From Planctomycetales bacterium (GTDB taxonomy: Bacteria > Planctomycetota > Planctomycetia > Planctomycetales > Planctomycetaceae), in contig JACRIH010000533.1 in the NCBI GenBank assembly GCA_016235885.1, forward strand, positions 1 to 22,850: a stretch of 22,850 nucleotides of DNA. The letters run 5' to 3'. Below are positions 92 to 22,850 of the stretch, piece after piece (the stretch's first letter is position 1; every line of letters begins with the position of its first letter). The notes under the pieces are model-generated. The model was not told the origin of the DNA and ran no database searches. It saw only the letters and a list, made by a program, of their open reading frames with translations. The position numbers were made by a program, and so were the translations under genes.

Positions 92-166
92 TCCGGGGCG
101 GTTGCTGCTGGTAGCAACGTCTGGCTCTGAACCAGAAGGTCGTTGGTTCGATTCCAACCCCCGGAA
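92..166 (+). tRNA. tRNA-Gln (anticodon CTG)
   Basis: Acceptor tccgggg/ccccgga is fully complementary. Anticodon arm tctgg-CTCTGAA-ccaga. T-arm GTTGG-TTCGATT-CCAAC. Length 75 nt. Confidence 0.8.
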
Positions 167-170
167 TTGA

Positions 171-243
171 AGGCAGAAGGATGAAATCGCTCGTGACCCC
201 AACCACTCGCCAAACGTTCATCCTTCATCCTTCTGCCTTTTTT
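171..243 (+). terminator. Inter-tRNA hairpin followed by a T5 run (terminator-like or processing element)
   Basis: 15-bp perfect inverted repeat aggcagaaggatgaa / ttcatccttctgcct (171-185 and 224-238) with a 38-nt loop. Followed by ttttt immediately before tRNA-Ser. Confidence 0.35.
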
Positions 244-329
244 GGAAGTCATCCGGCCGGATGAGGGACCTGTCCCGAAAACAGGTGGCGAGTTGAACTC
301 GCTTGTGGGTTCGAGTCCCACGGCTTCCG
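244..329 (+). tRNA. tRNA-Ser (anticodon CGA), class II with long variable arm
   Basis: Acceptor ggaagtc/ggcttcc. Anticodon arm cctgt-CCCGAAA-acagg. Variable-arm hairpin gcgag-ttgaa-ctcgc. T-arm GTGGG-TTCGAGT-CCCAC. Position 33 reads as C, which is atypical. Confidence 0.65.
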
Positions 330-519
330 CTGAACAAGGGCTCATGGTCCAACAGCAAGACGTCGGTCCTGCAAACCGGAGATTCGGGTGCAACTCACGG
401 TGGGTCCATTTTGAAGAGTTGAAGAGTGAAGGGCGAAGGGTGGAGGGCGAAAACAAAGTTGGGCAACCACGTCGTGGTACGCTTCGTGTTTTTCATTCTT
501 CTCACTTCACTCTTCATCC

Positions 520-591
520 GGTCCCGTGGTCCAGCGGCGACGACTTCTGGCCTACACCCAGACAACGATGGTTCGAGTCCATCCGGGATCA
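520..591 (+). tRNA. tRNA-Val (anticodon TAC)
   Basis: Acceptor ggtcccg/cgggatc (one G-U pair). Anticodon arm tctgg-CCTACAC-ccaga. T-arm GATGG-TTCGAGT-CCATC. 3-bp D-stem; C at position 33. Confidence 0.65.
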
Positions 592-599
592 TATTGATT

Positions 600-673
600 G
601 TCCTCGCGGAGCAGCTCGGAATGCTCGCCACCCTGTCACGGTGGAGACGTGGGTTCAAATCCCATCGAGGACG
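600..673 (+). tRNA. tRNA-Asp (anticodon GTC)
   Basis: Acceptor gtcctcg/cgaggac. D-stem gagc/gctc. Anticodon arm ccacc-CTGTCAC-ggtgg. T-arm GTGGG-TTCAAAT-CCCAT. Confidence 0.8.
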
Positions 674-696
674 TTTGGTGATGTGATATGTGATTC

Positions 697-778
697 GCGT
701 CGGCTGGGCATCGGCGTGCCCAAGTGGCCGTAACCCACCCGCCTTCGGGCAATGCAGGTTCGACTCCTGCTCGACGCA
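697..778 (+). tRNA. tRNA-Tyr (anticodon GTA), long variable arm
   Basis: Acceptor gcgtcgg/tcgacgc. D-stem gggc/gccc. Anticodon loop CCGTAAC. Variable arm gcc-ttcg-ggc. T-arm GCAGG-TTCGACT-CCTGC. Confidence 0.65.
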
Positions 779-785
779 TTGTTTC

Positions 786-858
786 GGCCCGTTCGTCTAT
801 TGGTACAGGACGCCAGCTTCTCACGCTGGCAAGGCGAGTTCGATTCTCGCACGGGTCA
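786..858 (+). tRNA. tRNA-Glu (anticodon CTC)
   Basis: Acceptor ggcccgt/acgggtc. D-arm gtctattggtacaggac resembles canonical tRNA-Glu. Anticodon arm ccagc-TTCTCAC-gctgg. T-arm GGCGAG-TTCGATT-CTCGC. Confidence 0.8.
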
Positions 859-938
859 TCTACGAGTATTTGTGTAGCCCCTGCCCTCGTGGCCGGCACA
901 AGGCCGGCGGCTACGACGGCCAGATTGATGGAAGATTC

Positions 939-1021
939 GACCGAGTGGTGAAATTGGTAGACACGCGACGCTCAGAACGTCGAGCCGTCAAGGCATGGGA
1001 GTTCGAGTCTCCCCTTGGTCA
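939..1021 (+). tRNA. tRNA-Leu (anticodon CAG), class II
   Basis: Acceptor gaccgag/cttggtc. D-arm tggtgaaattggtagacac is typical of tRNA-Leu. Anticodon arm cgacg-CTCAGAA-cgtcg. Variable-arm stem gcc/ggc. T-arm GGGAG-TTCGAGT-CTCCC. Confidence 0.85.
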
Positions 1022-1106
1022 TCGTTATCGACGCAGGTGAGCCAGTGCTCAGCCGAGGCTCATAACCTCAGCCCGCCGGGTGCGACCCCCGGACCTGCCA
1101 CTTGCC

Positions 1107-1176
1107 GTAGGTCAGGCTTTCCAGCCTGACTCGTTGGGCTGTCAACACACAGGTCAGGCTGGAAAGCCTGACCTAC
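1107..1176. repeat. Nested-palindrome (BIME-like) element between tRNA-Leu and tRNA-Ser
   Basis: 24-bp arms gtaggtcaggctttccagcctgac / gtcaggctggaaagcctgacctac are exact reverse complements with a 22-nt spacer. Each arm also contains its own 8-bp palindrome gtcaggct..agcctgac. Confidence 0.6.
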
Positions 1177-1190
1177 GACAAGATCCTCTC

Positions 1191-1276
1191 GGAAGGTAGC
1201 CGGATACGGTTGGCCGGGCCGCACTGCTAACGCGGCTCTCGTCACTGAGATGAGGGTTCGAATCCCTTGCCTTCCG
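1191..1276 (+). tRNA. tRNA-Ser (anticodon GCT), class II
   Basis: Acceptor ggaaggt/gccttcc (one G-U). D-stem ccgg/ccgg. Anticodon loop CTGCTAA. Variable-arm stem tctc/gaga. T-arm GAGGG-TTCGAAT-CCCTT. Confidence 0.75.
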
Positions 1277-1380
1277 CTGAATGTTTGTTTCGTGACATGG
1301 TGTTCGTGGTGTACCGGTGTGCATGCGACTCTGTGAAAGTCGAGGCGGTGGGTTCAACTCCCCTCGAACACCCTGCTGTG

Positions 1381-1490
1381 AATGATGAATTTCGAATGAC
1401 GAATGACGAACCGGCACCGATGCCGTTCGAGCATTCGACATTCGTCATTCTTTCGTCATTCGGATTTCGTCCTTCGTCATTCCCCCACAG
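1381..1490. repeat. Inverted blocks of tandem decamers GAATGACGAA ... TTCGTCATTC (copy 1)
   Basis: Left block gaatgacgaatgacgaa; right block ttcgtcattctttcgtcattc...ttcgtcattc, in opposed orientation. Lies immediately upstream of the HNH gene start. Confidence 0.7.
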
Positions 1491-1497
1491 GTGCATC

Positions 1498-2091
1498 ATG
1501 TCGGCGGTTCTTACTCGACCAACGCTCGTGCTCAACCGGAACTGGCAACCGGTGGGTGTGGCCTCGGTGTCGCGCTCGCTGATCCTGTTGTGGAACGACA
1601 ACGCGCGCGTGGTCGATCCGGCGGACTTCCGGCTGTACACGTGGAGCGATTGGTCGCGAATGATTCCGCTCGCGGATGAACCGTTCATCCAGGCGGTTCG
1701 GTCGCGGCTGCGGGTGCCGGAAGTGATTTCGCTGACGAACTTCGACCGCGTTCCGATGAACGGGGTGACGTTCAGCCGGCGGAACATTTATCGGCGTGAC
1801 CGTTACACGTGTCAGTACTGCGGTTCGCAGCCGGGGAGCGAAGAACTGACGATCGATCACGTCCTGCCGCGGGCGCAGGGGGGAACTTCGATGTGGGAGA
1901 ACTGTGTTCTCGCATGCGTCGCTTGCAACAAGCGCAAGGCCGACCGCACGCCCGAACAGGCGCACATGCCGCTGCACAAGCGGCCGGTTCGTCCCTCATG
2001 GAAGCCGCACTACGCCACGCGCGGAGTCCGGATCGACAGTTGGTCCCGCTTCCTCAGTGAAGCGTATTGGAATGTGGAACTGAATGCGTAG
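1498..2091 (+). CDS. HNH endonuclease (COG1403 / McrA-like), 197 aa
   Basis: Translation starts MSAVLTRPTLVLNRNWQPV, the N-terminal motif typical of this family. C-terminal motif CQYCGS...LTIDHVLPRAQGG...WENCVLACVACNKRK has the C-X2-C...DH...N...C-X2-C arrangement. AGGTG lies 7 nt upstream of the ATG. The long ORF in the track begins inside the repeat/tRNA region and was trimmed. Confidence 0.85.
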   Translation: MSAVLTRPTLVLNRNWQPVGVASVSRSLILLWNDNARVVDPADFRLYTWSDWSRMIPLADEPFIQAVRSRLRVPEVISLTNFDRVPMNGVTFSRRNIYRRDRYTCQYCGSQPGSEELTIDHVLPRAQGGTSMWENCVLACVACNKRKADRTPEQAHMPLHKRPVRPSWKPHYATRGVRIDSWSRFLSEAYWNVELNA

Positions 2092-2109
2092 CGGAAAGCT
2101 TTCAGCAAT

Positions 2110-2171
2110 CAGCGGTCAGCGATCAGCCAATCGGTTGAGGCTGACTGTTGAAAGCTGATCGCTGACCGCTG
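2110..2171 (+). terminator. Long hairpin downstream of the HNH gene
   Basis: 18-bp perfect inverted repeat cagcggtcagcgatcagc / gctgatcgctgaccgctg around a 26-nt loop. There is no clear U-tract, so function as a terminator is uncertain. Confidence 0.35.
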
Positions 2172-2175
2172 CCAC

Positions 2176-2245
2176 ACGAGTGTGCTCCTGGGAGAGCCAG
2201 TGGTCTCCAAAGCCGCTTCATGAGGTTCGAATCCTCACACTCGTG
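2176..2245 (+). other. Degenerate tRNA-like element (possible tRNA pseudogene or integration-site remnant)
   Basis: Perfect acceptor pairing acgagtg/cactcgt and canonical T-arm TGAGG-TTCGAAT-CCTCA. No canonical anticodon arm can be folded, and the element is only 70 nt long. Confidence 0.4.
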
Positions 2246-2248
2246 CTG

Positions 2249-2296
2249 TTGGAGTCCCGGCTTCAGCCGGTCTGCCGCCTGAAGGCGGGACTCCAA
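2249..2296 (+). other. Compact three-way-junction structure following the tRNA-like element
   Basis: Outer stem ttggagtc/gactccaa encloses two hairpins, ccggc-ttca-gccgg and ccgcc-tgaa-ggcgg. Confidence 0.35.
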
Positions 2297-2299
2297 CCT

Positions 2300-2373
2300 G
2301 CCGACGTGGCTCGACTGAGAAAGGCATCTGTCCCGTAAACAGACTCATGCTGGTGCGAATCCAGTCGTCGGCT
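2300..2373 (+). tRNA. tRNA-Thr-like (anticodon CGT), non-canonical D-arm
   Basis: Perfect acceptor gccgacg/cgtcggc. Anticodon arm tctgt-CCCGTAA-acaga. T-arm GCTGG-TGCGAAT-CCAGT (G at position 54). D-arm cannot be folded canonically and position 33 is C. Confidence 0.5.
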
Positions 2374-2394
2374 CTTGGTTCAAAGTTTGTTTTG

Positions 2395-2512
2395 GGAGTG
2401 CTCCGGCTTGACGGAGCTTTGGAATTTTTTGCGAAGCACTTTCGCCATCCTATAGAAACGGAAAGAAAGTCGCTCCGCGACAATTCCAAAGCTCCGTCAA
2501 GCCGGAGCACTC
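2395..2512. repeat. MITE-like palindromic element with 32-bp perfect terminal inverted repeats
   Basis: ggagtgctccggcttgacggagctttggaatt (2395-2426) is the exact reverse complement of 2481-2512. Interior carries hairpins gcgaa..ttcgc and GTCGCTCCGCGAC. This element generates the mirror-image ORFs 2347..2598 (+) and 2235..2672 (-). Confidence 0.75.
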
Positions 2513-2518
2513 CAAAGT

Positions 2519-2589
2519 TGCCCTGCGGGTGTGCCGGAAGCATGACAGACTTCGAATCTGTCGGACGAGGTTCGATTCCTCGGTGGGGT
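2519..2589 (+). tRNA. tRNA-Arg-like (anticodon TCG), weak acceptor stem
   Basis: Anticodon arm acaga-CTTCGAA-tctgt. T-arm CGAGG-TTCGATT-CCTCG. Acceptor gccctgc/gtggggt needs three G-U pairs and the D-arm is poor. Followed by tttttt. Confidence 0.45.
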
Positions 2590-2599
2590 GTTTTTTGAA

Positions 2600-2670
2600 C
2601 GTCCTCGGAGTGTGGTGGATGCATGCGACCGTGCGAAGGTCGAAGATCAGGTTCGACTCCTGACGGGGAC
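2600..2670 (+). tRNA. tRNA-Arg-like (anticodon reads GCG, unusual)
   Basis: Acceptor gtcctcg/cggggac. Anticodon arm cgacc-GTGCGAA-ggtcg. T-arm TCAGG-TTCGACT-CCTGA. D-arm has G-U pairs; anticodon GCG is not a standard bacterial Arg isoacceptor. Confidence 0.45.
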
Positions 2671-2719
2671 ATCCGTGTTCGATCCGTGTTTCATCCGTGG
2701 CAAAAAAACAATTCCTCCC

Positions 2720-2791
2720 GACGCTGTTGCCGGATGGTCCGGCCACTGTCTGCAAAGCAGTTCTTCGTGGGTTCGATTCCCACCGGCGTCT
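2720..2791 (+). tRNA. tRNA-Cys (anticodon GCA)
   Basis: Acceptor gacgctg/cggcgtc. D-stem gccg/cggc. Anticodon arm actgt-CTGCAAA-gcagt. T-arm GTGGG-TTCGATT-CCCAC. Confidence 0.8.
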
Positions 2792-2801
2792 TCAAGGAAA
2801 A

Positions 2802-2842
2802 GTAGGGTGGGACCAGCTCGCGAAGCGAGTGCAGGCCCACCA
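2802..2842. repeat. REP-like unit GTAGGGTGGGAC..GAAGCG..GGCCCACCA (single copy)
   Basis: Same motif order as the palindromic dimer at 8206-8290. Contains a ctcgc-gaa-gcgag hairpin. Confidence 0.55.
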
Positions 2843-2992
2843 TTGCCGAGATGATGATTCGTCATGACCAGACACGAGCAATTTCAAGCAAGGTTGACGC
2901 AGCCGGGCCAGCGGCGCATCAAGACCTGTCCTGTTCGCAGGCGGTTGTCCGAATGTGTTCCGCGAGTGGGTTCTAACGAAGGCTGTGTCGGC

Positions 2993-3065
2993 GAGTGGTT
3001 AGCTCAGTGGGTAGAGCACCAGACCGTGAATCTGGCTGTCACAGGTTCGACTCCTGTACCAACTG
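2993..3065 (+). tRNA. tRNA-His-like (anticodon GTG), imperfect acceptor stem
   Basis: Perfect D-arm agctcagtgggtagagc. Anticodon arm ccaga-CCGTGAA-tctgg. T-arm ACAGG-TTCGACT-CCTGT. The acceptor strands gagtggt/accaact have two adjacent mismatches. Confidence 0.5.
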
Positions 3066-3480
3066 CGGTGTGAAAAACCGCTCCAAAACGCGAAAGCGTT
3101 TACCAACCGGCCCGACGGTGGCGGGCGAATGATTGATCTGCGGATGCTTCGTTGATGTGCTCTCGTAATTGAGTGCTGCTCGACGTCGGCCGAAAGGCTG
3201 GCGGATGAGTCAGCGGATTGCGGGCCGTGCATCGCGAACATCGGCAACGTGACGGTTTGCTTTGCAGGGCGTGGATTCAGCCATCGCAAATTTCGGACAG
3301 ACGGTCGTGGATGCTGGTCGGACGCTCGCGTGACATTTGTCCGCGAGCGACAAAACCAGACGAAGCGACCGAACCTCCGCAGCTCGCGATGGCTCAAACG
3401 TCTCTCCGCATCCCGGCGCGGGATTAACAATCGTTTCGCCACCTGACGGCAATTCAACTTCCTCTCCACAGCGGGGGAGA

Positions 3481-3660
3481 GGACGGGAGTGGGGAATGAC
3501 GAATTCCGAATGACGAATGACGAATGAATGACAAAGCTCGAATGACGAACACGAGCCTTCACTTCGAGTTCACTGCCTGAATGCGTCACCGGCGAATTCG
3601 GCATTCGGCATTCGTCATTCGGAATTCATTCGTCATTCGTGCTTCCGCCATTCGTCATTC
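3481..3660. repeat. Inverted blocks of tandem decamers GAATGACGAA ... TTCGTCATTC (copy 2)
   Basis: Left block has four or more gaatgacgaa-like units; right block has cattcgtcattcg units in opposite orientation. Upstream of the SPFH gene. Creates the HSSFVI-repeat artefact in the minus-strand ORF 2999..3604. Confidence 0.7.
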
Positions 3661-3671
3661 CACACCGCCCC

Positions 3672-3707
3672 TCACCCCCGACCCCTCTCCCCCAAAGGGG
3701 AGAGGGG
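3672..3707. repeat. REP-like hairpin CCCTCACCCCCGACCCCTCTCCCCC-aaa-GGGGAGAGGGG (copy 1)
   Basis: Stem cccctctcccc / ggggagagggg. A near-identical copy lies at 19474-19509. Its 3' arm, ggagaggggagaag, sits directly before the SPFH ATG and acts as a Shine-Dalgarno sequence. Confidence 0.65.
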
Positions 3708-3712
3708 AGAAG

Positions 3713-4840
3713 ATGAAACGAAAGGACGCTCTCATGTACCCGATCAATGTCATCAAGGTCCGCGACTACGAAATGGGACTCCGGTTCCGAGACGGAGAAT
3801 TCCGCGGACTGTTCGCGCCGGGCCGGCACTGGCTGTTCGACCCGCTCCGCAAGGTGCGCGTGGCTGTCGTGTCGCAGCGCGATCCGTGGCTGGTTCACGA
3901 GAAGCTCGACCTGATCGTCAAGTCGGGTGCGCTGCGCGACCGCGCGGTCGTGCTCGATCTGAAGGATCATCAGCGGGCGCTGATCTGGATCGACGGTCGA
4001 TTCAGCCACGTGCTGCCGCCTGGTCTGTACGCGTACTGGAACTCGCTGCGCGACGTGTCGGTCGAAGTGATCGATGCGCGCGACGTTCGATTCCAGCACA
4101 AGGATCTGTCGGTGATCGCGCGGTCGCCGCTGGTGGATCGAGTTCTCGAATTCATCACGGTCGAAGCGGGTCACGCCGGCGTGCTGCTCCGGGATGGCGA
4201 CTTCGTGGAAACGCTGCCGCCAGGCCGGTACGCGTTTTGGAAGAACGTCGCGCAGAGCAAGCTGATCCCGGTGGATCAGCGCGAAGCGATGCTCGATGTG
4301 GCCGGTCAGGAAATCATGACGTCGGACAAGGTCACGCTGCGCCTCAACGCCATCGTGACGTTCCGTGTTGTCGATCCGCGCCGCGCCGTCAGCATTGTGG
4401 ATGACGCCCGTCAGGCACTGTACCGCGAGGCACAGCTCGCCCTGCGAGCCGTCATCGGCACGCGCGAACTCGACCTGTTCCTGACCGACAAGGACTCCGT
4501 CGCGAAGGACTTGGAAGAGATCGTCCGGCGTCGCGTGTCGGCGTTTGGTCTGGAAGTCGTTTCGATCGGTATCCGCGACGTGATCCTGCCGGGCGACATG
4601 AAGGATCTGATGAACAAGGTGACGGAAGCCAAGAAGGCAGCCGAAGCAAACCTGATCGCCCGTCGTGAGGAAACGGCGGCGATGCGCAGTCAGGCCAACA
4701 CGGCCAAGCTGCTGGAAGGCAACCCAATGCTAATGCGGCTGCGCGAACTGGAAGTTCTCGAAAAGGTCGCGGCATCGTCCAAGCTCAACGTCGTGCTGGG
4801 CGAAAAGGGGTTGGCCGATCGGATTGTCAACCTGTTGTGA
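3713..4840 (+). CDS. SPFH / band-7 (stomatin-prohibitin-like) domain protein with three N-terminal repeats, 375 aa
   Basis: C-terminal half (IVTFRVVDPRRAVSIVDDARQALYREAQLALRAVIGTRELD...) has the SPFH pattern. N-terminal half has three repeats of about 45 aa, each containing LPPGxYAxW. Start chosen at ATG 3713 after the GGAGAGGGGAG sequence; the longer track ORF begins inside the repeat array. Confidence 0.85.
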   Translation: MKRKDALMYPINVIKVRDYEMGLRFRDGEFRGLFAPGRHWLFDPLRKVRVAVVSQRDPWLVHEKLDLIVKSGALRDRAVVLDLKDHQRALIWIDGRFSHVLPPGLYAYWNSLRDVSVEVIDARDVRFQHKDLSVIARSPLVDRVLEFITVEAGHAGVLLRDGDFVETLPPGRYAFWKNVAQSKLIPVDQREAMLDVAGQEIMTSDKVTLRLNAIVTFRVVDPRRAVSIVDDARQALYREAQLALRAVIGTRELDLFLTDKDSVAKDLEEIVRRRVSAFGLEVVSIGIRDVILPGDMKDLMNKVTEAKKAAEANLIARREETAAMRSQANTAKLLEGNPMLMRLRELEVLEKVAASSKLNVVLGEKGLADRIVNLL

Positions 4841-4852
4841 TTTGTGAAACGA

Positions 4853-4888
4853 ACCCGGAGGCTGAGCAATCGGCCTCCGGGTTTTTCT
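4853..4888 (+). terminator. Rho-independent terminator of the SPFH gene
   Basis: Stem acccggaggc / gcctccgggt followed by TTTTTCT, 13 nt after the stop codon. Confidence 0.75.
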
Positions 4889-4897
4889 GTCGTGCAT

Positions 4898-4995
4898 GCG
4901 GCTACGTAGCCATCACGCTCCGCGTGATGAGCCGAATGGCCAATCGACGTCGCATCCCGATTCGGCTCGTCACGCGGAGCGTGACGGCTACGTTA
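4898..4995. repeat. Nested-palindrome element with CGCTCCGCG core (family copy A)
   Basis: Left arm ggctacgtagcc-ATCACGCTCCGCGTGAT-gagccgaat. Right arm attcggctc-GTCACGCGGAGCGTGAC-ggctacgt. The arms are imperfect reverse complements and each arm is itself palindromic. Confidence 0.65.
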
Positions 4996-5001
4996 AGTCC
5001 G

Positions 5002-5550
5002 TCAATTCCCGCTGAACATCTGTAGTTCCTCATCCTTCATTGGATGCAGGCGGTGGACTTCGATGATCTTCCAGTCGGCCCCCTCCCGCTGCCACTTGAG
5101 TTCCCATCGCGACGGTTGATGCCCGGCGTTTGTCTGCTGGTACGAAACGGTCCCGTTGGCTCGGAACCGAGTCTTCGCGAGCGTTTCGCCGGCGAGCAGC
5201 GTCACCTGCACATCTTTTTTTTGGAGGAGGTTCAGGTTTTTGACGTTCTCGAGAGCGGCGTCTTTGGACATTTTCAGCAAGACCTCGCGCGCGGAGAAAA
5301 AGCTCAGCGTTCGATCGCGATCCGTGCGCTGAAACGCGGCGGTCAGGTCGCGGATGTTCTGTTCCAGTTGCTCGGCAGTCGTGACCACGAAGTGATCGAC
5401 GACAAACGCTGTCAGGGCCAGCGTGATGGCGGCGACGGCTCCGATCAGCAGACCTTTTCTCCGCTGCTGGTTCCAAACGACGAACAAGCCGACCGCTGCG
5501 ATCAGGCACGGAACGATGAGCGGCCACGGGTTTTCGGTGATCAGTCCCAT
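5002..5550 (-). CDS. Hypothetical membrane-anchored protein (two N-terminal TM helices, NTF2/SnoaL-like C-terminal fold guessed)
   Basis: ORF MGLITENPWPLIVPCLIAAVGLFVVW...LLIGAVAAITLALTAFVV..., then a soluble domain ending WKIIEVHRLH. ATG at 5548-5550; the track ORF starts 3 nt earlier at a TTG. No confident family assignment. Confidence 0.65.
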   Translation of the reverse strand: MGLITENPWPLIVPCLIAAVGLFVVWNQQRRKGLLIGAVAAITLALTAFVVDHFVVTTAEQLEQNIRDLTAAFQRTDRDRTLSFFSAREVLLKMSKDAALENVKNLNLLQKKDVQVTLLAGETLAKTRFRANGTVSYQQTNAGHQPSRWELKWQREGADWKIIEVHRLHPMKDEELQMFSGN

Positions 5551-5787
5551 CAATGAGAATCGCCGTCAGAAGGACGCTGGCCGCGAGTTACAAGGCCGCA
5601 GACGGAACGAACTATAGCCGTTCAAACGCCCGTTTCAATTGGCTTCGCAGCGTGCGGAAAATGCCCGCTGCGGTCGCTTGAATCCCCACGCGGGTTTTGT
5701 CATAGTCCAGCCCTTCTCCAACGGACCAACTGGGCCAGCGGTCGCGGTGCGACCCGGCGAGCAAAGTAGACCCGCAGAAGAAGTTTT

Positions 5788-5853
5788 GTAGCCACGCTCG
5801 CCAAGAGCGTGGGTTTTCCGCGATTTTCCCCACGCTCTTGGCGAGCGTGGCTA
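5788..5853. repeat. 26-bp perfect inverted repeat, nested-palindrome type, upstream of nuoH
   Basis: gtagccacgctcgccaagagcgtggg and cccacgctcttggcgagcgtggctac are exact reverse complements with a 14-nt T-rich spacer. Each arm holds an 8-bp palindrome ccacgctc..gagcgtgg; the left one is followed by gttttcc, giving a terminator-like hairpin. Confidence 0.7.
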
Positions 5854-5892
5854 CCCCGAGATCAATGCGGTTACACTTGGCAAAGGTGAAGT

Positions 5893-7212
5893 ATGCCCGC
5901 ACTGTTTGCGGCGGACAGCAGCATCGCGAAGTTTCTTTCCGATCATATCGGTGAGACGTGGGGCTACGGCCTTACCGCGCTGATCCACGCCGTGCTCATC
6001 ATCCATTTTTTCGCCGTCGCGCCGCTGTTCTACATCTGGCTGGAACGGAAGGTGGCCGGGCGAATTCAGGATCGGCTGGGACCGACCCGCGTCGGCGGCA
6101 AGTTCGGCTGGCTGCAAACTTTGGCCGACGGCATCAAGCTGATTCAAAAGGAAGACCTCTGCCCGGGCGCGGCCGACAGGTTCCTGTTCCGGCTGTCTCC
6201 GTACTTGGTGTTCGTGGCCTCGTTCGGCGCGTTCCTGACGCTGCCGTGGTCCGACGGCTGGATCGCTCAGAATCTCGACATCGGTGTGTTTTTCATGCTG
6301 GCGGTGATGTCGCTGGAAGTCATCGGCGTGGTGTTCGCCGGGTATTCGAGCGGTTCGAAATGGGCGCTGTTCGGTGGCATGCGCGAAGCGGCTCAGGTCG
6401 TGAGCTACGAAATCCCGATGGCGATCTGTGCCCTCGTGCCCGTCATCGTCGCCGGGACGCTGAACATGGTGGACATCGGCCGGATGCAATCAGGTTGGTT
6501 CACCAATTGGTTCGTGTTGCACGACCCGTTTTGTTGTCTCGCGTTTTTCGTCTACTTCACCGTGGCCACGGCCAGCGTCAAGCGGGCACCGTTTGATCTG
6601 GCGGAAGCGGAAAGCGAACTCGTCGCCGGATTCCACACGGAATACAGCGGCATTCGCTGGTCGTACTTTTTCATGGCCGAATACGCCAGCATGTTTGCCG
6701 TGTCGGGAATCGCGACCGCGCTCTTCCTCGGCGGTTGGTACACGGGGATTGCTCCCATCGACGAAGGTTTGTTTGCCTCGATTCGCGAAGTGGGAGGGAG
6801 TCCGGCGGAAGGCGTGACGACTCTCGGCAGCTACGTCGTCAACCTCATCGGGATGACGATCTTCCTCGTCAAGGGAAGCGCTCTGGTGTTCTTCCAAATT
6901 TGGATCCGCTGGACACTCCCGCGGCTCCGCATCGATCAGGTGATGACCACCTGCCTGAAGTATTTGCTGCCGATCAGTTGCTTCCTGCTCGTCGGCGTCA
7001 GCGTGTGGCCGCTGTTGCTCAATTCCTGCATTGGGCGGACGACGCTGGTTCCCGGCGAAGCGGCCGCGCTGGGGAACAAGGTGCCGCGCGTCGCACCGAC
7101 AACTACCGGCCGAAAAACGGTGGCGATCTCACTCACAAACGACCACGGCGAAACGATTCCGGGAATCCTGTTTGATCCTGTGCCAATTACTGCTACTGCG
7201 GAACGAGAATAG
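5893..7212 (+). CDS. nuoH: NADH-quinone oxidoreductase subunit H (NuoH/ND1) with a C-terminal extension of about 60-100 aa
   Basis: WLERKVAGRIQDRLGPTRVGGKFGWLQTLADGIKLIQKEDL is the NuoH signature. The core ends near RIDQVMTTCLKYLLPISCFLLVGVSVWPLL and is followed by an extension without cysteine motifs. AGGTGA sits 6 nt before the ATG. Confidence 0.9.
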   Translation: MPALFAADSSIAKFLSDHIGETWGYGLTALIHAVLIIHFFAVAPLFYIWLERKVAGRIQDRLGPTRVGGKFGWLQTLADGIKLIQKEDLCPGAADRFLFRLSPYLVFVASFGAFLTLPWSDGWIAQNLDIGVFFMLAVMSLEVIGVVFAGYSSGSKWALFGGMREAAQVVSYEIPMAICALVPVIVAGTLNMVDIGRMQSGWFTNWFVLHDPFCCLAFFVYFTVATASVKRAPFDLAEAESELVAGFHTEYSGIRWSYFFMAEYASMFAVSGIATALFLGGWYTGIAPIDEGLFASIREVGGSPAEGVTTLGSYVVNLIGMTIFLVKGSALVFFQIWIRWTLPRLRIDQVMTTCLKYLLPISCFLLVGVSVWPLLLNSCIGRTTLVPGEAAALGNKVPRVAPTTTGRKTVAISLTNDHGETIPGILFDPVPITATAERE

Positions 7213-19518: not shown

Positions 19519-21039
19519 TTATGCCAACAACTCTTGGATCACGTGCCCATGCACGTCCGTCAACCGGCGGTCGATGCCGTTGTGGCGTAACGTCAGCTTC
19601 GTGTGGTCGATCCCCAGCAGGTGCAGGATTGTAGCGTGGATGTCGTAGACTTCGGTGGGGTTGTCGCGGTCCAGCGGCTTGTAGCCCCATTCGTCGCTCG
19701 GGCCGTGGGTGATGCCTCCCTGGATGCCGCCGCCGCACAGCCAGTTCGTGAAGACGTACGGATTGTGATCGCGCCCCTTGCCTCCTTGCGACGATGGCAT
19801 TCGGCCGAATTCGGTCGTCCAGTGGATGATCGTGTCGTCCAGCAGGCCGCGTTGTTTGAGATCCTGAATCAACGCGGCGGCGCCGCGAGCCATCCCCATC
19901 GCCAGCGGGCCGTGGTCTCGTTCGACGTCTTCGTGCGAATCCCAATTCCGGCGCGGGAAGCCGTTGTCGTTGCCCGAGTAGACCTGAATGAAGCGGACTC
20001 CGCGTTCGAGCAGCCGCCGGGCGACAAGGCACTTGCGCGAGAAATAGTCGATCTCCTCGATCGGGTTGATCTCTTTGTCGAACTCCGTCTTGCCGTGATC
20101 GAGGCCGTACAGTTTGAGGACGTGCTGCGGTTCCTGCGAAATGTCGAGCGCTTCCGGCGCGGCGAGTTGCATCCGGGCCGCGAGTTCATAGCTGCGGATG
20201 CGGGCGTCGAGTCGTTCGTCATCGTCGCGACCGGCAACGTGCAGGCGGTTCAGCCGGCCGAGCAGTTCAATTCCCACCGTTTCGCTCTGCCGTGTGATGA
20301 AGTCTCCCTGCTTCGCGGGGAACAGGTCGGCGATGGGCGTCTCGCGGCCGGGGAAGATCACCGTCCCCTGATGCTGCGCCGGCAGGAACGCGCTGTCCCA
20401 ATTCTTCGTCCCGTTCGAAGCGAAGCCGCGGTGATCGGGCAGCACGACGAACGTCGGCAGGTTTTCGTTCAGGCTGCCGAGACCGTAGCTGATCCAGCAG
20501 CCCATCCCCGGAAAGCCCGGTCGATTGAAGCCGGTGGTTTGCAGCAGCGTCCCCTGACTATGCACGCCCGTCTTGCCGACGACGTTGTGGACGAACGCGA
20601 TGTCATCCACAACCTTCCCGAGTTCCCCCACCACGTCGCTGAGCATCTTGCCGCACTGGCCGTACGGTTTGAAATCCCACACCGGTTTCAACCACGGTCC
20701 CAGCCCGTTCTGAAACGCCTCGACAGGCTCCCCAAAATCGGACGGCTGACCGTGGTGCTTGATGAGCGCGGGCTTGAAGTCGAACAAGTCGAGAGGACTC
20801 GCGGCCCCGGCCATGAAGAGTTGGATGACTCGCTTGGCGCGGGGTGCGAAGTGTGGCTGTGGTGAGTTTGAGGGCGTGAGAGTGCGAGGGTTTGGGGTAG
20901 AGTCGCCGGCGCGGAGTCGATCGTCGTTGAGGAGACTCGCCAGCGCGATCGCACCCAGGCCGCCGCCGGAGTTCCGAAGGAACTCGCGACGTGAGTGTGA
21001 ACTGTCCCCCGCCTGGCTGTGCCAAAATGAACGCTGCAT
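19519..21039 (-). CDS. DUF1501 domain protein (sulfatase-like fold) with twin-arginine signal peptide, 506 aa
   Basis: N-terminus MQRSFWHSQAGDSSHSRREFLRNSGGGLGAIALASLL carries a Tat motif. C-terminal GRDHNPYVF...HATILHLLGIDHTKLT...RLTDVHGHVIQELL is the DUF1501 signature. GAGGT lies 8 nt before the ATG. The upstream ORF extension to 21201 was rejected. Confidence 0.85.
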   Translation of the reverse strand: MQRSFWHSQAGDSSHSRREFLRNSGGGLGAIALASLLNDDRLRAGDSTPNPRTLTPSNSPQPHFAPRAKRVIQLFMAGAASPLDLFDFKPALIKHHGQPSDFGEPVEAFQNGLGPWLKPVWDFKPYGQCGKMLSDVVGELGKVVDDIAFVHNVVGKTGVHSQGTLLQTTGFNRPGFPGMGCWISYGLGSLNENLPTFVVLPDHRGFASNGTKNWDSAFLPAQHQGTVIFPGRETPIADLFPAKQGDFITRQSETVGIELLGRLNRLHVAGRDDDERLDARIRSYELAARMQLAAPEALDISQEPQHVLKLYGLDHGKTEFDKEINPIEEIDYFSRKCLVARRLLERGVRFIQVYSGNDNGFPRRNWDSHEDVERDHGPLAMGMARGAAALIQDLKQRGLLDDTIIHWTTEFGRMPSSQGGKGRDHNPYVFTNWLCGGGIQGGITHGPSDEWGYKPLDRDNPTEVYDIHATILHLLGIDHTKLTLRHNGIDRRLTDVHGHVIQELLA

Positions 21040-21114
21040 GATGAAACCTCGTGACGGTGTATTTCGTTCGTTTTTGGAGTGCGGCGGCTTGACGCCGCAT
21101 TTGTTTATTTTTGG

Positions 21115-21138
21115 CATGACAAGATTGCGGTTGTCATG
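21115..21138. promoter_or_regulatory. Operator-like palindrome CATGACAA-N8-TTGTCATG upstream of the DUF1501 gene
   Basis: 8-bp perfect inverted repeat centred about 85 bp upstream of the start codon. An adjacent AT-rich tract (tttgtttatttttgg) and the gcggc-ttgac-gccgc hairpin lie nearby. Confidence 0.35.
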
Positions 21139-21144
21139 ACTGTT

Positions 21145-21355
21145 GCCCCAACGGGGCGCAATTCGATAGCCCAGGGCGCAGCCCTGGGTTGGCAGTTGCA
21201 TCCATCACACGAGCCCCAATGGGGCGCAATATTGGGGATTCCCATATCCTCGACTGCGTCCTCACGCGAATTTCGCCCCGTTGGGGCTATCGCACCAATG
21301 ACCGCCGTTACCCAGGGCTGCGCCCTGGGCTATCGAATCGCGCCCCTTCGGGACT
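21145..21355. repeat. BIME-like cluster of GC-rich hairpins between the DUF1553 and DUF1501 genes
   Basis: 25-bp perfect inverted repeat gatagcccagggcgcagccctgggt (21165-21189) / acccagggctgcgccctgggctatc (21310-21334). Four small hairpins GCCCC-NNN-GGGGC lie in alternating orientation. Confidence 0.7.
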
Positions 21356-21378
21356 GATCAGAAAACTCCACTCCAAAA

Positions 21379-22500
21379 TCAATCCACAAAAACAAATTCA
21401 TTCAAATTCAACAGCAGCCGGCAAGTGTTGGCCAATCCGTGCTCGCGGGCGTACGTGGTGAGTTCCCGCAGTTCGTCGTCTGTCGGAGGCCGGCTGAGGG
21501 CGAGGCGAAACGCTTGCGTCACCTGTGACAAAATGTCTCCGCCGGGTTTCTCGACTCGGGCGGCGAAATGCTTCGACATGACCACGGTGAGCTGGTTGTT
21601 CAGGAGCGCCAGCGCTTGCAGAGGGGTGATCGTTTGCGTGCGCTTGTCGACCAGCATCGACGGATCGGCGCAGTCGAGCGTGGTCATGAACGGCTGCAAC
21701 TGCGAGCGGACGAGGAACCGGTACACCGACCGGCGATGCGATGCGGGATCGTCCGCGTTGTACAGGTGATATTCGTAGTGCGGCGAGTGCTCGGGCTTGT
21801 CGATCACGAAGTCCTGGAAACTCGGGCCACCGAGCGCGGGGTTGAGCTTGCCGCTGACGGACAGAATCGCATCGCGGATCGCTTCGGCTTCCAGACGCCG
21901 GCGACTTTGTCGCCAGAGGAAACGGTTGTCGGAGTCCAAAGTAGCCGCGTCACTCCGTGACGCGAGTTTCGGGTCACGGAGTGACCCGTCTACATTCGAC
22001 GACTGCCGATACGCCGCGCTCGTCACAATCAGTCGGTGCAGTCGCTTGATCGACTGGCCGCCGTCGCGGAATTCGCTGGCCAGCCAATCGAGCAGTTCGG
22101 GGTGACTCGGCAACTGACCCATTCGGCCGAAGTCGTTCGGCGTGTCCACGAGGCCGTGGCCGAAGTGGTAAAGCCAGACGCGGTTCACGATCGATCGCCA
22201 CGTCAGCGGGTTCTGCGGATCGGTCAGCCACTTCGCGAGGGCGGCACGGCGTGCCCCTTCTGCGTGATCGCTCGGCAGGTTGAATCGAGCCGGCAGCGCG
22301 GCCACCACGGTCAACGCTCCCGGTCCGGCTTCCGCTCCCGGCTTCGTCACGTCTCCGCGCGGCAGGAGGTGAATTGGTCTCGGCTTGCCACCATTCGCTC
22401 CGGTGCCAGAGAAGGCTCCCGAGCCGTGATGGATCGTGCCCGCGAACACGAGGCGCGGCGGAGGCAACTTCGATCCAGCCCAGTTCCAGGCACAACGCAT
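21379..22500 (-). CDS. DUF1553 (PSD1) domain protein, C-terminal part only; appears N-terminally truncated and is possibly a gene remnant
   Basis: LAKWLTDPQNPLTWRSIVNRVWLYHFGHGLVDTPNDFG...HPELLDWLASEF...IKRLHRLIVTSAAYRQSS and the C-terminus LLNLNEFVFVD match DUF1553. There is no PSCyt1/DUF1549 part. Upstream the same frame reaches a stop at 22579-22581, and the other minus frames read as low-complexity sequence. Confidence 0.65.
   Translation of the reverse strand: MRCAWNWAGSKLPPPRLVFAGTIHHGSGAFSGTGANGGKPRPIHLLPRGDVTKPGAEAGPGALTVVAALPARFNLPSDHAEGARRAALAKWLTDPQNPLTWRSIVNRVWLYHFGHGLVDTPNDFGRMGQLPSHPELLDWLASEFRDGGQSIKRLHRLIVTSAAYRQSSNVDGSLRDPKLASRSDAATLDSDNRFLWRQSRRRLEAEAIRDAILSVSGKLNPALGGPSFQDFVIDKPEHSPHYEYHLYNADDPASHRRSVYRFLVRSQLQPFMTTLDCADPSMLVDKRTQTITPLQALALLNNQLTVVMSKHFAARVEKPGGDILSQVTQAFRLALSRPPTDDELRELTTYAREHGLANTCRLLLNLNEFVFVD
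21941..21998. repeat. Second copy of the GTCACTCCGTGA...GTCACGGAGTGACCCGTCTACATTCG element, embedded in-frame in the DUF1553 coding sequence
   Basis: Matches 17178-17236 over about 40 of 46 aligned positions. On the minus strand it is translated as [18 protein letters not shown]. Confidence 0.65.
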
Positions 22501-22543
22501 GCAGCGTTACCGGGAACTGCTAGAGGTGAGCAACGACGATGAA

Positions 22544-22850
22544 TGGAAGATCCTGCAGCCCCGCATTGATAAGGTCCTTCAGGCCCAGCGCGATGTGCGT
22601 GTGAGAGCCGCCCTTGGCCGGCGCGGGAACGGCCCAACGCCGGGCGGCGCACAGGCTGATCCCAACGCGGCAAGCGGCCAGCGCCGGGGACGCGGTGGGC
22701 GTGGTGGTGCAGGCGACGCGACCGCTTCCGGCGCCGCTGCGGGCCGCAACAACGCGGTCCCCAACTCCAGCTTCGGCTCCACGGAGTCGACTCCCGAGGT
22801 GGCAGCTCTCCAAGCCGCGGTGGTAAACAAGGCGCCATCCTCGGAGATCA
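22544..22850 (+). CDS. Possible partial CDS running off the window end, with an apparent upstream frameshift (speculative)
   Basis: From ATG 22544 the frame is open to the end of the window (MEDPAARIDKVLQAQRDVRVRAALGRRGNG...TPEVAALQAAVVNKAPSSEI). The adjacent frame from TTG 22500 reads QRYRELLEVSNDDEWKILQP up to a C-run at 22557-22562. Gly/Arg-rich and low-complexity. Confidence 0.2.

Follow-up and report, generated by a model that had tools for sequence, protein, structure and literature searches.

A six-hairpin inverted doublet related to the Acido-Lenti-1 motif, most likely a gene-less mobile-element remnant, in a planctomycete DUF1553-DUF1501 spacer

Two minus-strand genes lie near the end of the window, the whole 22,850-nucleotide stretch of DNA analysed here. 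The upstream gene is a PSD1/DUF1553 open reading frame of 373 aa (21379..22500; PF07587, 303 bits; stop codon at 21379-21381), and the downstream gene encodes a DUF1501 protein of 506 aa (19519..21039; PF07394, 438 bits; ATG at 21039). They are separated by a spacer of 339 bp (21040-21378), in agreement with a sequence-only reading of the window, which had described an intercistronic element between two minus-strand genes and put the spacer at 340 bp. The PSD1 ORF was 71% identical to residues 655-1007 of the PSCyt-PSD1 protein of an orthologous locus, L203, and only those residues were aligned by tblastn. Its usual PSCyt1/PSCyt2 N-terminal part is missing, frameshifted or located past the contig end. 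Upstream of the ORF start at 22500, stop codons occurred in all three minus-strand frames (22500-22850). The PSCyt/PSD1 orthologue in another locus, L204, was likewise split into two ORFs.

Direct reading of positions 20900-21600 showed six GC-rich hairpins in the spacer, all of them the ones previously noticed and all within 21142-21357. They make up a near-palindromic doublet (21142..21357, no strand assigned) in which two three-hairpin halves flank a centre of 27 nt. The left half (21142..21236, plus strand) consists, in order, of a small hairpin, hpA, 9 nt, the trinucleotide TAG, a large hairpin, hpB, a spacer and a second small hairpin, hpC. The right half (21264..21357) has the same three hairpins on the minus strand. 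hpA, GCCCCAACGGGGC (21145..21157, plus strand), has a 5-bp stem, GCCCC/GGGGC, that covaries across the family, and the loop AAC. The TAG (21167..21169, plus strand) is unpaired, lies at the 5' foot of hpB and was conserved in an alignment of 40 half-elements. Direct reading and the pattern count gave hpB (21170..21188, plus strand) an 8-bp stem, CCCAGGGC/GCCCTGGG, and the loop GCA. hpC, GCCCCAATGGGGC (21213..21225, plus strand), has a 5-bp stem and the loop AAT and is followed by GCAAT, as is hpA. The mirror copies on the minus strand are hpC', GCCCCGTTGGGGC (21275..21287), hpB' (21311..21329; minus-strand TAG foot, 21330-21332) and hpA', GCCCCTTCGGGAC (21342..21354). Read on the minus strand, the stem of hpA' is GUCCC/GGGGC with one U.G pair; on the plus strand the same position is a C.A mismatch. 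The centre between the halves (21237..21263, no strand assigned) is the place where autonomous relatives of the element, described below, carry a Y1 transposase gene of about 450 bp.

The order of the hairpins was thus small-large-small-small-large-small. The sequence-only reading had the two large hairpins bracketing all four small ones, of which only two are in fact bracketed, and it had the small hairpins alternating in orientation, when they run + + - - in mirror symmetry. The perfect 25-nt inverted repeat that it reported, CGATAGCCCAGGGCGCAGCCCTGGG, is real (21164-21188 versus 21311-21335) and forms part of longer, 43-nt arms (21147-21189 and 21310-21352) that the repeat search found to be 93% complementary and 120 nt apart. 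An inner inverted pair was found by the same search at 21212-21230 and 21270-21288. The doublet can be folded either as six local hairpins or as one long stem, and the predicted folding energy of the spacer RNA (338 nt) was -189 kcal/mol, with z = -13.6 relative to shuffled sequences. A chance cluster of GC-rich palindromes might be suspected in a GC-rich genome, and the window is about 57-64% GC. However, in the chance controls the 18-mer motif had 3 matches where 0.05 were expected and the large hairpin sequence had 4 where 0.01 were expected, and the shuffle controls, together with the Rfam E-values and the homologous doublets in many genomes that are described below, have already refuted this explanation, to which we attach a negligible probability. 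The six-hairpin near-palindrome is far beyond chance.

The two halves were also recognized by R1, a covariance model of the 95-nt half-element built from 40 halves. The scores of 81.9 bits (E = 9e-19) for the left half and 83.8 bits (E = 3e-19) for the right half apply to sequences within the training set of the model, since the halves from the window were among the 40. An R1 scan found no second copy of the element elsewhere in the 22.8-kb window.

About 100 nt of the 339-bp spacer are left unexplained by the doublet. They include a further 8-bp hairpin, CATGACAA ... TTGTCATG, at 21115-21138, just outside the doublet. Between the doublet and the DUF1501 start codon there is a terminator-like GC hairpin with a T-run on the plus strand (21077-21112), antisense to the operon; nothing obvious on the plus strand needs a terminator. 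An intrinsic terminator of the operon was considered and rejected, as no GC hairpin followed by a U-run, and no other terminator-like site, was found on the minus (transcribed) strand within 20800-21700. The spacer had no promoter-like site on that strand.

The sequence-only reading regarded the DUF1553-DUF1501 pairing as conserved, and an element placed between the two genes as notable for that reason. This argument did not survive the comparison of orthologous loci. Among the closest DUF1501 homologues preceded by a PSCyt/PSD1 gene, the spacer was 48 bp in L203, 44 bp in the P0005 contig, 14 bp in L285 and 13 bp in L288, and the element was absent from all four, as compared with 339 bp at the studied locus. 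The DUF1501 protein of L203 had 84% amino-acid identity to that of the window, and R1 had no match in L203 or in four further orthologous loci. Four orthologous pairs with spacers of 13-48 bp and no element argue for an insertion rather than a conserved function at DUF1553-DUF1501.

Other loci with related genes were arranged differently. In L204 the orthologous spacer (5309-6000) is 692 bp long and full of another short repeat, ACGCAGATGAACGCAGATGGACGCAGATA and its complement; no Acido-Lenti-1 units were present among the repeats of this spacer. One half-element was found directly downstream of the L204 DUF1501 gene. In L089, a Planctomyces MAG, the DUF1501 gene (4551-5690) had 76% nucleotide identity to that of the window, and a doublet (3202-3391) was located about 1.2 kb past the 3' end of the gene rather than upstream of it.

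The location and the structure of the element could suggest a cis-acting RNA selected at this locus, one that stabilises the upstream DUF1553 mRNA, attenuates read-through or provides a processing site that uncouples DUF1501 expression. The element lies between two minus-strand cistrons, and its predicted structure is very stable, as the z-score indicates. Effects of this kind on mRNA are known for REP/BIME and Correia elements in other bacteria. Nevertheless, we consider this explanation unlikely. It does not account for the absence of the element from the four orthologous pairs, nor for the occurrence of the doublet in many unrelated contexts, where the same units also flank transposase genes. 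Moreover, the element has no orientation relative to transcription because it is mirror symmetric, and the minus strand has neither a terminator-like nor a promoter-like site.

A search of a 551-base region with the Rfam models gave two matches to RF01687, the Acido-Lenti-1 motif, with E-values of about 1e-7. One comprised hpB, the linker and hpA (21144..21188, minus strand; 39.7 bits) and the other hpB', the linker and hpA' (21311..21355, plus strand; 40.7 bits), both above the gathering score of 37. Both matches were full length (model positions 1-46 of 46). Each arm of the element is therefore a member of RF01687, and the outer two hairpins of each end are Rfam's Acido-Lenti-1 RNA motif. 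In Rfam, RF01687 is an sRNA gene with two hairpins and no known function, 'sometimes near group II introns'. In the present study, the unit was found instead within a three-hairpin end, in inverted doublets and in connection with a Y1 transposase gene.

The Acido-Lenti-1 seed has 89 sequences, with many copies per genome that are often clustered. Many copies were from Lentisphaera araneosa and from NC_008009, which we take to be Koribacter versatilis, and two sequences were from NC_005027, presumably Rhodopirellula baltica. Four of the Lentisphaera seed copies (NZ_ABCK01000001.1, 416513-416780) lie on the same strand exactly 74 nt apart, and in other seed clusters the period is 69, 110-115 or 192 nt; such regular arrays are unlike the inverted doublets that dominate elsewhere. 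The 74-nt spacing raised the possibility of a CRISPR-like array, which was rejected for the window, where there is a single inverted pair.

The distribution of the unit was determined by scanning for an exact pattern that included hpB with its TAG foot. It was present in at least 116 stretches of species-representative genomes and in 86 stretches of viral contigs. Thus, the motif is multi-copy and dispersed across many genomes, and the uniqueness to this locus that the sequence-only reading had named among its refuting observations was not found. Among the matches listed, the hosts were mainly Planctomycetota and Verrucomicrobiota, together with Lentisphaerae, Bacteroidales and Acidobacteriota MAGs, there were several loci per MAG, and many matches fell within tens of bases of contig ends. 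Single MAGs contributed repeatedly, MFD02248.bin.2.136 with at least 12 exact matches and GL74 with at least 8 loci. Neighbouring units, again among the matches listed, were arranged '+ then -' at a distance of 100-150 nt in 31 cases, as against 3 same-strand pairs, so the inverted doublet is the predominant arrangement. The 86 viral stretches, L001-L086, came from IMG/VR contigs, many of them about 100 kb (sample 3300045988). They carried a low-GC variant of the unit and of the doublet, GCCCTGAAAGGGC-AGAAGCTCC-TAG-CCCAGGGC..., at syntenic positions across related viral contigs, and no Y1 gene was found within the stretches fetched.

Thirty doublets had the six-hairpin layout of the window, in sources that extend from phage contigs of low GC to planctomycetes of high GC; the sequences of the stems diverge, with complementarity retained. 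The whole window doublet could be aligned over about 215 bp, with about 68-72% identity, to ten of the thirty (L095, L181, L167, L196, L122, L102, L176, L126, L120 and L118). The invariance of the hpB TAG in the alignment of the 40 half-elements is a matter of ascertainment, as TAG was part of the pattern used to fetch them; in loci selected by protein similarity the foot was TAG or CAG. The preceding base is variable, A in the window and C, T or G elsewhere. An integron attC site had been considered for GCCCCAAC...GTTGGGGC. This candidate was rejected because the loops and flanks vary freely across copies (AAC, AAT, GAA, TGAAA), so that the RYYYAAC/GTTRRRY cores are not conserved.

Covariation was assessed in 131 independent copies from the protein-selected loci. 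Compensatory changes were found at all 18 base pairs of the three hairpins, including all 8 pairs of hpB, and 98.9% of the base-pair cells were paired, compared with 81% in shuffled sequences. G.U pairs were rare, about 2% of the cells, and when the loop-closing pair was set aside they were about as frequent as other mismatches. In the unique genome units, hpA had 22 G.T as compared with 9 A.C combinations. As evidence for which strand is folded, the G.T and A.C counts are a weak hint only of an orientation opposite to that of Rfam.

The Rfam type of Acido-Lenti-1, 'Gene; sRNA', would make the element two divergently oriented genes for a small trans-acting RNA. The matches above the gathering score and the clear covariation of the stems agree with this assignment, and Weinberg et al. 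2010 (PMC2864571) considered it probable that the motif is an RNA. The covariation, however, is equally expected of DNA hairpins recognised by an HUH enzyme. Several other observations make the sRNA assignment very improbable in our estimation, 1) there are no promoter-like or terminator-like signals beside either unit, 2) the units occur mostly as inverted pairs or as the ends of transposase genes, pointing outward in the Rfam orientation, 3) G.U pairs are rare in the stems, and 4) many Lentisphaera seed sequences have an A.C mismatch in the Rfam orientation.

When ORFs of at least 120 codons were clustered from loci retrieved solely through the DNA motif, a single family was dominant in the genome loci, a protein of about 150 aa found in 10 of the 116 listed loci, on ten different contigs. 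These proteins matched PF01797 (Y1_Tnp) with 76-94 bits. Against NF033573 (IS200/IS605 transposase; cut-off 55) the scores were 52, 72 and 58 bits, while the RAYT model NF047646 (REP-associated tyrosine transposase; cut-off 80) gave only 20-24 bits. The linked protein is a TnpA of the Y1_Tnp / IS200 type. It is about 148 aa long, with the motifs DH[IV]H, WQ and YIxNQxEHH and a conserved C-terminal tail. No Y1 gene was detected by tblastn in the 22.8-kb window.

In three of the loci, L138, L190 and L115, the Y1 gene has a '+' unit on one side and a '-' unit on the other, arranged as in the doublet. Each flank of the L138 gene has hpA, hpB and hpC, and the two flanks align with the left half and the right half of the window element, respectively; in L115, the left end of the Y1 gene unit aligns with the left half. 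The alignment of its halves to the L138 flanks indicates that the window element has the form of the ends of a Y1 unit, with 27 nt in place of the gene. The L138 protein itself (1806-2260, minus strand) reads DRLH where its relatives have DH[VIL]H. The first His of HUH is thereby replaced by Arg, and this copy may be inactive because that residue has been lost. In another locus, L264, a 16S rRNA gene (2901-3704) starts about 1.2 kb downstream of a Y1 unit.

The association was also found in the reciprocal direction. With an alignment of nine of these proteins, A1, as query, 80 metagenome loci were selected purely on protein similarity, and 76 of the 80 had an R1 match. Upstream of the ATG, a '+' end was no more than 160 nt away in 57 of the 75 loci with enough sequence; downstream of the stop codon, a '-' end was found within the same distance in 54 of 72. 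Both ends were present in 42 of 67, with most distances no greater than 25 nt. The RF01687 model, at its gathering threshold, matched both flanks of the gene in L138, L282, L271, L276 and L283. The ends and the Y1 gene are, accordingly, linked reciprocally and with positional precision in related bacteria.

Taken together, the form of the element, its family and the linked gene point to a gene-less mobile-element remnant inserted into the operon spacer as the most likely origin, rather than a regulator specific to the locus. In structural terms, it is quite probably a REPIN/MITE-like doublet of two inverted Y1-unit ends, each about 95 nt long with three hairpins, that lacks the gene and was presumably mobilised in trans. 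The element probably has no dedicated function at this locus. Its mobility, like any effect on the mRNA, is inferred.

The HUH Y1 enzymes of the IS200/IS605 TnpA and RAYT/REP systems recognise single-stranded DNA hairpins and make use of bases at the foot of the hairpin, and they do not duplicate the target. By extension from these enzymes, the hairpins of the present element would be single-stranded DNA recognition structures for a Y1 enzyme, and, as in RAYT/REP, the TAG at the foot of hpB would be a specificity element, serving as GTAG does in REPs. The doublet may have been copied or moved into the spacer, with no target-site duplication, by a transposase whose gene lies elsewhere in the genome. 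No direct repeat was found flanking the window doublet or any of the 30 printed doublets, an absence of target-site duplication that is consistent with copying or movement by a Y1 enzyme. The flanks tend to read ..CTT | AAG.., continuing the palindrome. No empty site was recovered when the joined flanks of 28 doublets were compared by BLAST with all the fetched loci, the only matches being tandem-array artefacts in L154. As a by-product, the insertion would have given the RNA between the two cistrons a very stable structure that lacks a U-tract. By analogy with REP/BIME and Correia elements, this structure could impede 3' exonucleases or offer a site for RNase III.

The element had been called BIME-like, a label that is apt in kind, for the family is multi-copy, dispersed and arranged in inverted doublets and brackets a Y1 gene in relatives of the window element. 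It does not extend to membership of the enterobacterial REP/BIME family, since the element belongs to RF01687 and the linked transposase fails NF047646. The family resembles the REP/BIME/REPIN-RAYT systems of E. coli and Pseudomonas (Di Nocera et al. 2013, PMC3733652) in the predominance of inverted doublets and in a Y1 HUH gene with the repeats inverted on its two sides, found here in relatives. It also consists of short GC-rich palindromes, has an unpaired TAG at the foot of hpB where REPs have GTAG, and is present in many extragenic copies in related MAGs. It differs in having three hairpins per arm, where REPs and REPINs have one, and in the variable base before TAG (A here), with CAG in some relatives. 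The linked protein has YIxNQxEHH, not the YIxxNP of RAYTs, and falls below the RAYT cut-off. Enterobacterial BIMEs have alternating Y and Z types of REP, defined linker motifs and IHF or gyrase binding. The element has no sequence relation to the E. coli REPs, and the resemblance to the enterobacterial BIMEs is architectural only. Overall, the repeat family behaves like REPs and REPINs and is RF01687 in sequence, and the window element is a true but unexceptional member of it.

All the signatures given for subclass 1.2 of the TnpA-Y1 proteins by Quentin et al. 2018 (PMC6006769), a length of about 148 aa, DH[IV]H, WQ, YIKNQKEHH and a C-terminal tail, are present in the linked proteins; the assignment was made by motifs and not with the HMMs of those authors. 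That subclass was listed without REPs, without typical IS200 end structures and mainly from Cyanobacteria and Bacteroidetes (PMC6006769). In contrast, the genes found here are precisely bracketed by structured inverted ends, are in Planctomycetota and Verrucomicrobiota, and have ends that also occur as gene-less doublets. Class 3 of the same study, from Planctomycetes and Acidobacteria and with a 'CnGA' foot (Quentin et al. 2018, PMC6006769), was considered and rejected, as the linked proteins have DH[VI]H / WQ / YIxNQxEHH and not NHVH / W[TA] / YV..EQ.

Di Nocera et al. 2013 (PMC3733652) reported GTAG repeats in the PVC superphylum that are linked to tyrosine transposases, with R. baltica and O. 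terrae among the examples. They also described TIRtrons (TIRYT), in which a tyrosine transposase gene lies between long inverted repeats that are in some cases 'double palindromic', and noted that TIRtron repeats form families in dimers or clusters as well, one of them in Koribacter versatilis (PMC3733652). Judged by their description, TIRtrons resemble the present units in combining a transposase gene with inverted repeats that are also found as dimers. Most TIRYTs belong to subclass 2.1 and have HTH tails (Quentin et al. 2018, PMC6006769), unlike the proteins found here.

Similarities to MITEs, such as the Correia elements of Neisseria, are also apparent. The doublet is a short non-autonomous element made of the two inverted ends of a transposase-bearing unit and, like the Correia elements, can be folded into a long hairpin in RNA. 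However, unlike those MITEs it has no target-site duplication, and its ends are hairpins suited to a single-strand HUH enzyme rather than flat inverted repeats for a DDE enzyme. The ends of the Y1 units are inverted repeats, which distinguishes them from those of IS608-type elements.

The long spacer and the hairpins at the studied locus are thus explained by an insertion, not by a conserved regulatory device, and the locus is a caution against inferring function from the DUF1553-DUF1501 pairing. The link between RF01687 and a Y1 transposase of the subclass 1.2 type is a more interesting by-product of the analysis than the window element itself, as it ties an Rfam family of unknown function to a transposase subclass reported without partner repeats. 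A broader proposition, which we favour with less assurance than the reading of the window element, is that Acido-Lenti-1 is not an RNA gene but the single-stranded DNA end structure of a multi-phylum REPtron-like system, in which the enzyme is TnpA-Y1 subclass 1.2 and the ends are three-hairpin modules that spread as gene-less inverted doublets. The proposed system may span Planctomycetota, Verrucomicrobiota, Lentisphaerae, Acidobacteriota, Bacteroidales and some of their phages. Among the papers searched, none linked Acido-Lenti-1 to a transposase, and a recent preprint still treats it as a non-coding RNA of unknown role. If confirmed, the link between RF01687 and the transposase subclass would correct an "ncRNA" annotation that is propagated by genome pipelines, provide a defined protein-DNA pair for the biochemistry of HUH enzymes outside Proteobacteria and help to account for assembly breaks in MAGs of the PVC group.

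At the opposite end of the window, 15 tRNA genes are densely packed on the plus strand within about 3 kb (92-3066), in the order Gln, Ser, Val, Asp, Tyr, Glu, Leu, Ser, His, Trp, Thr, Arg, Arg, Cys and His. The array holds two genes for tRNA-His(GTG).
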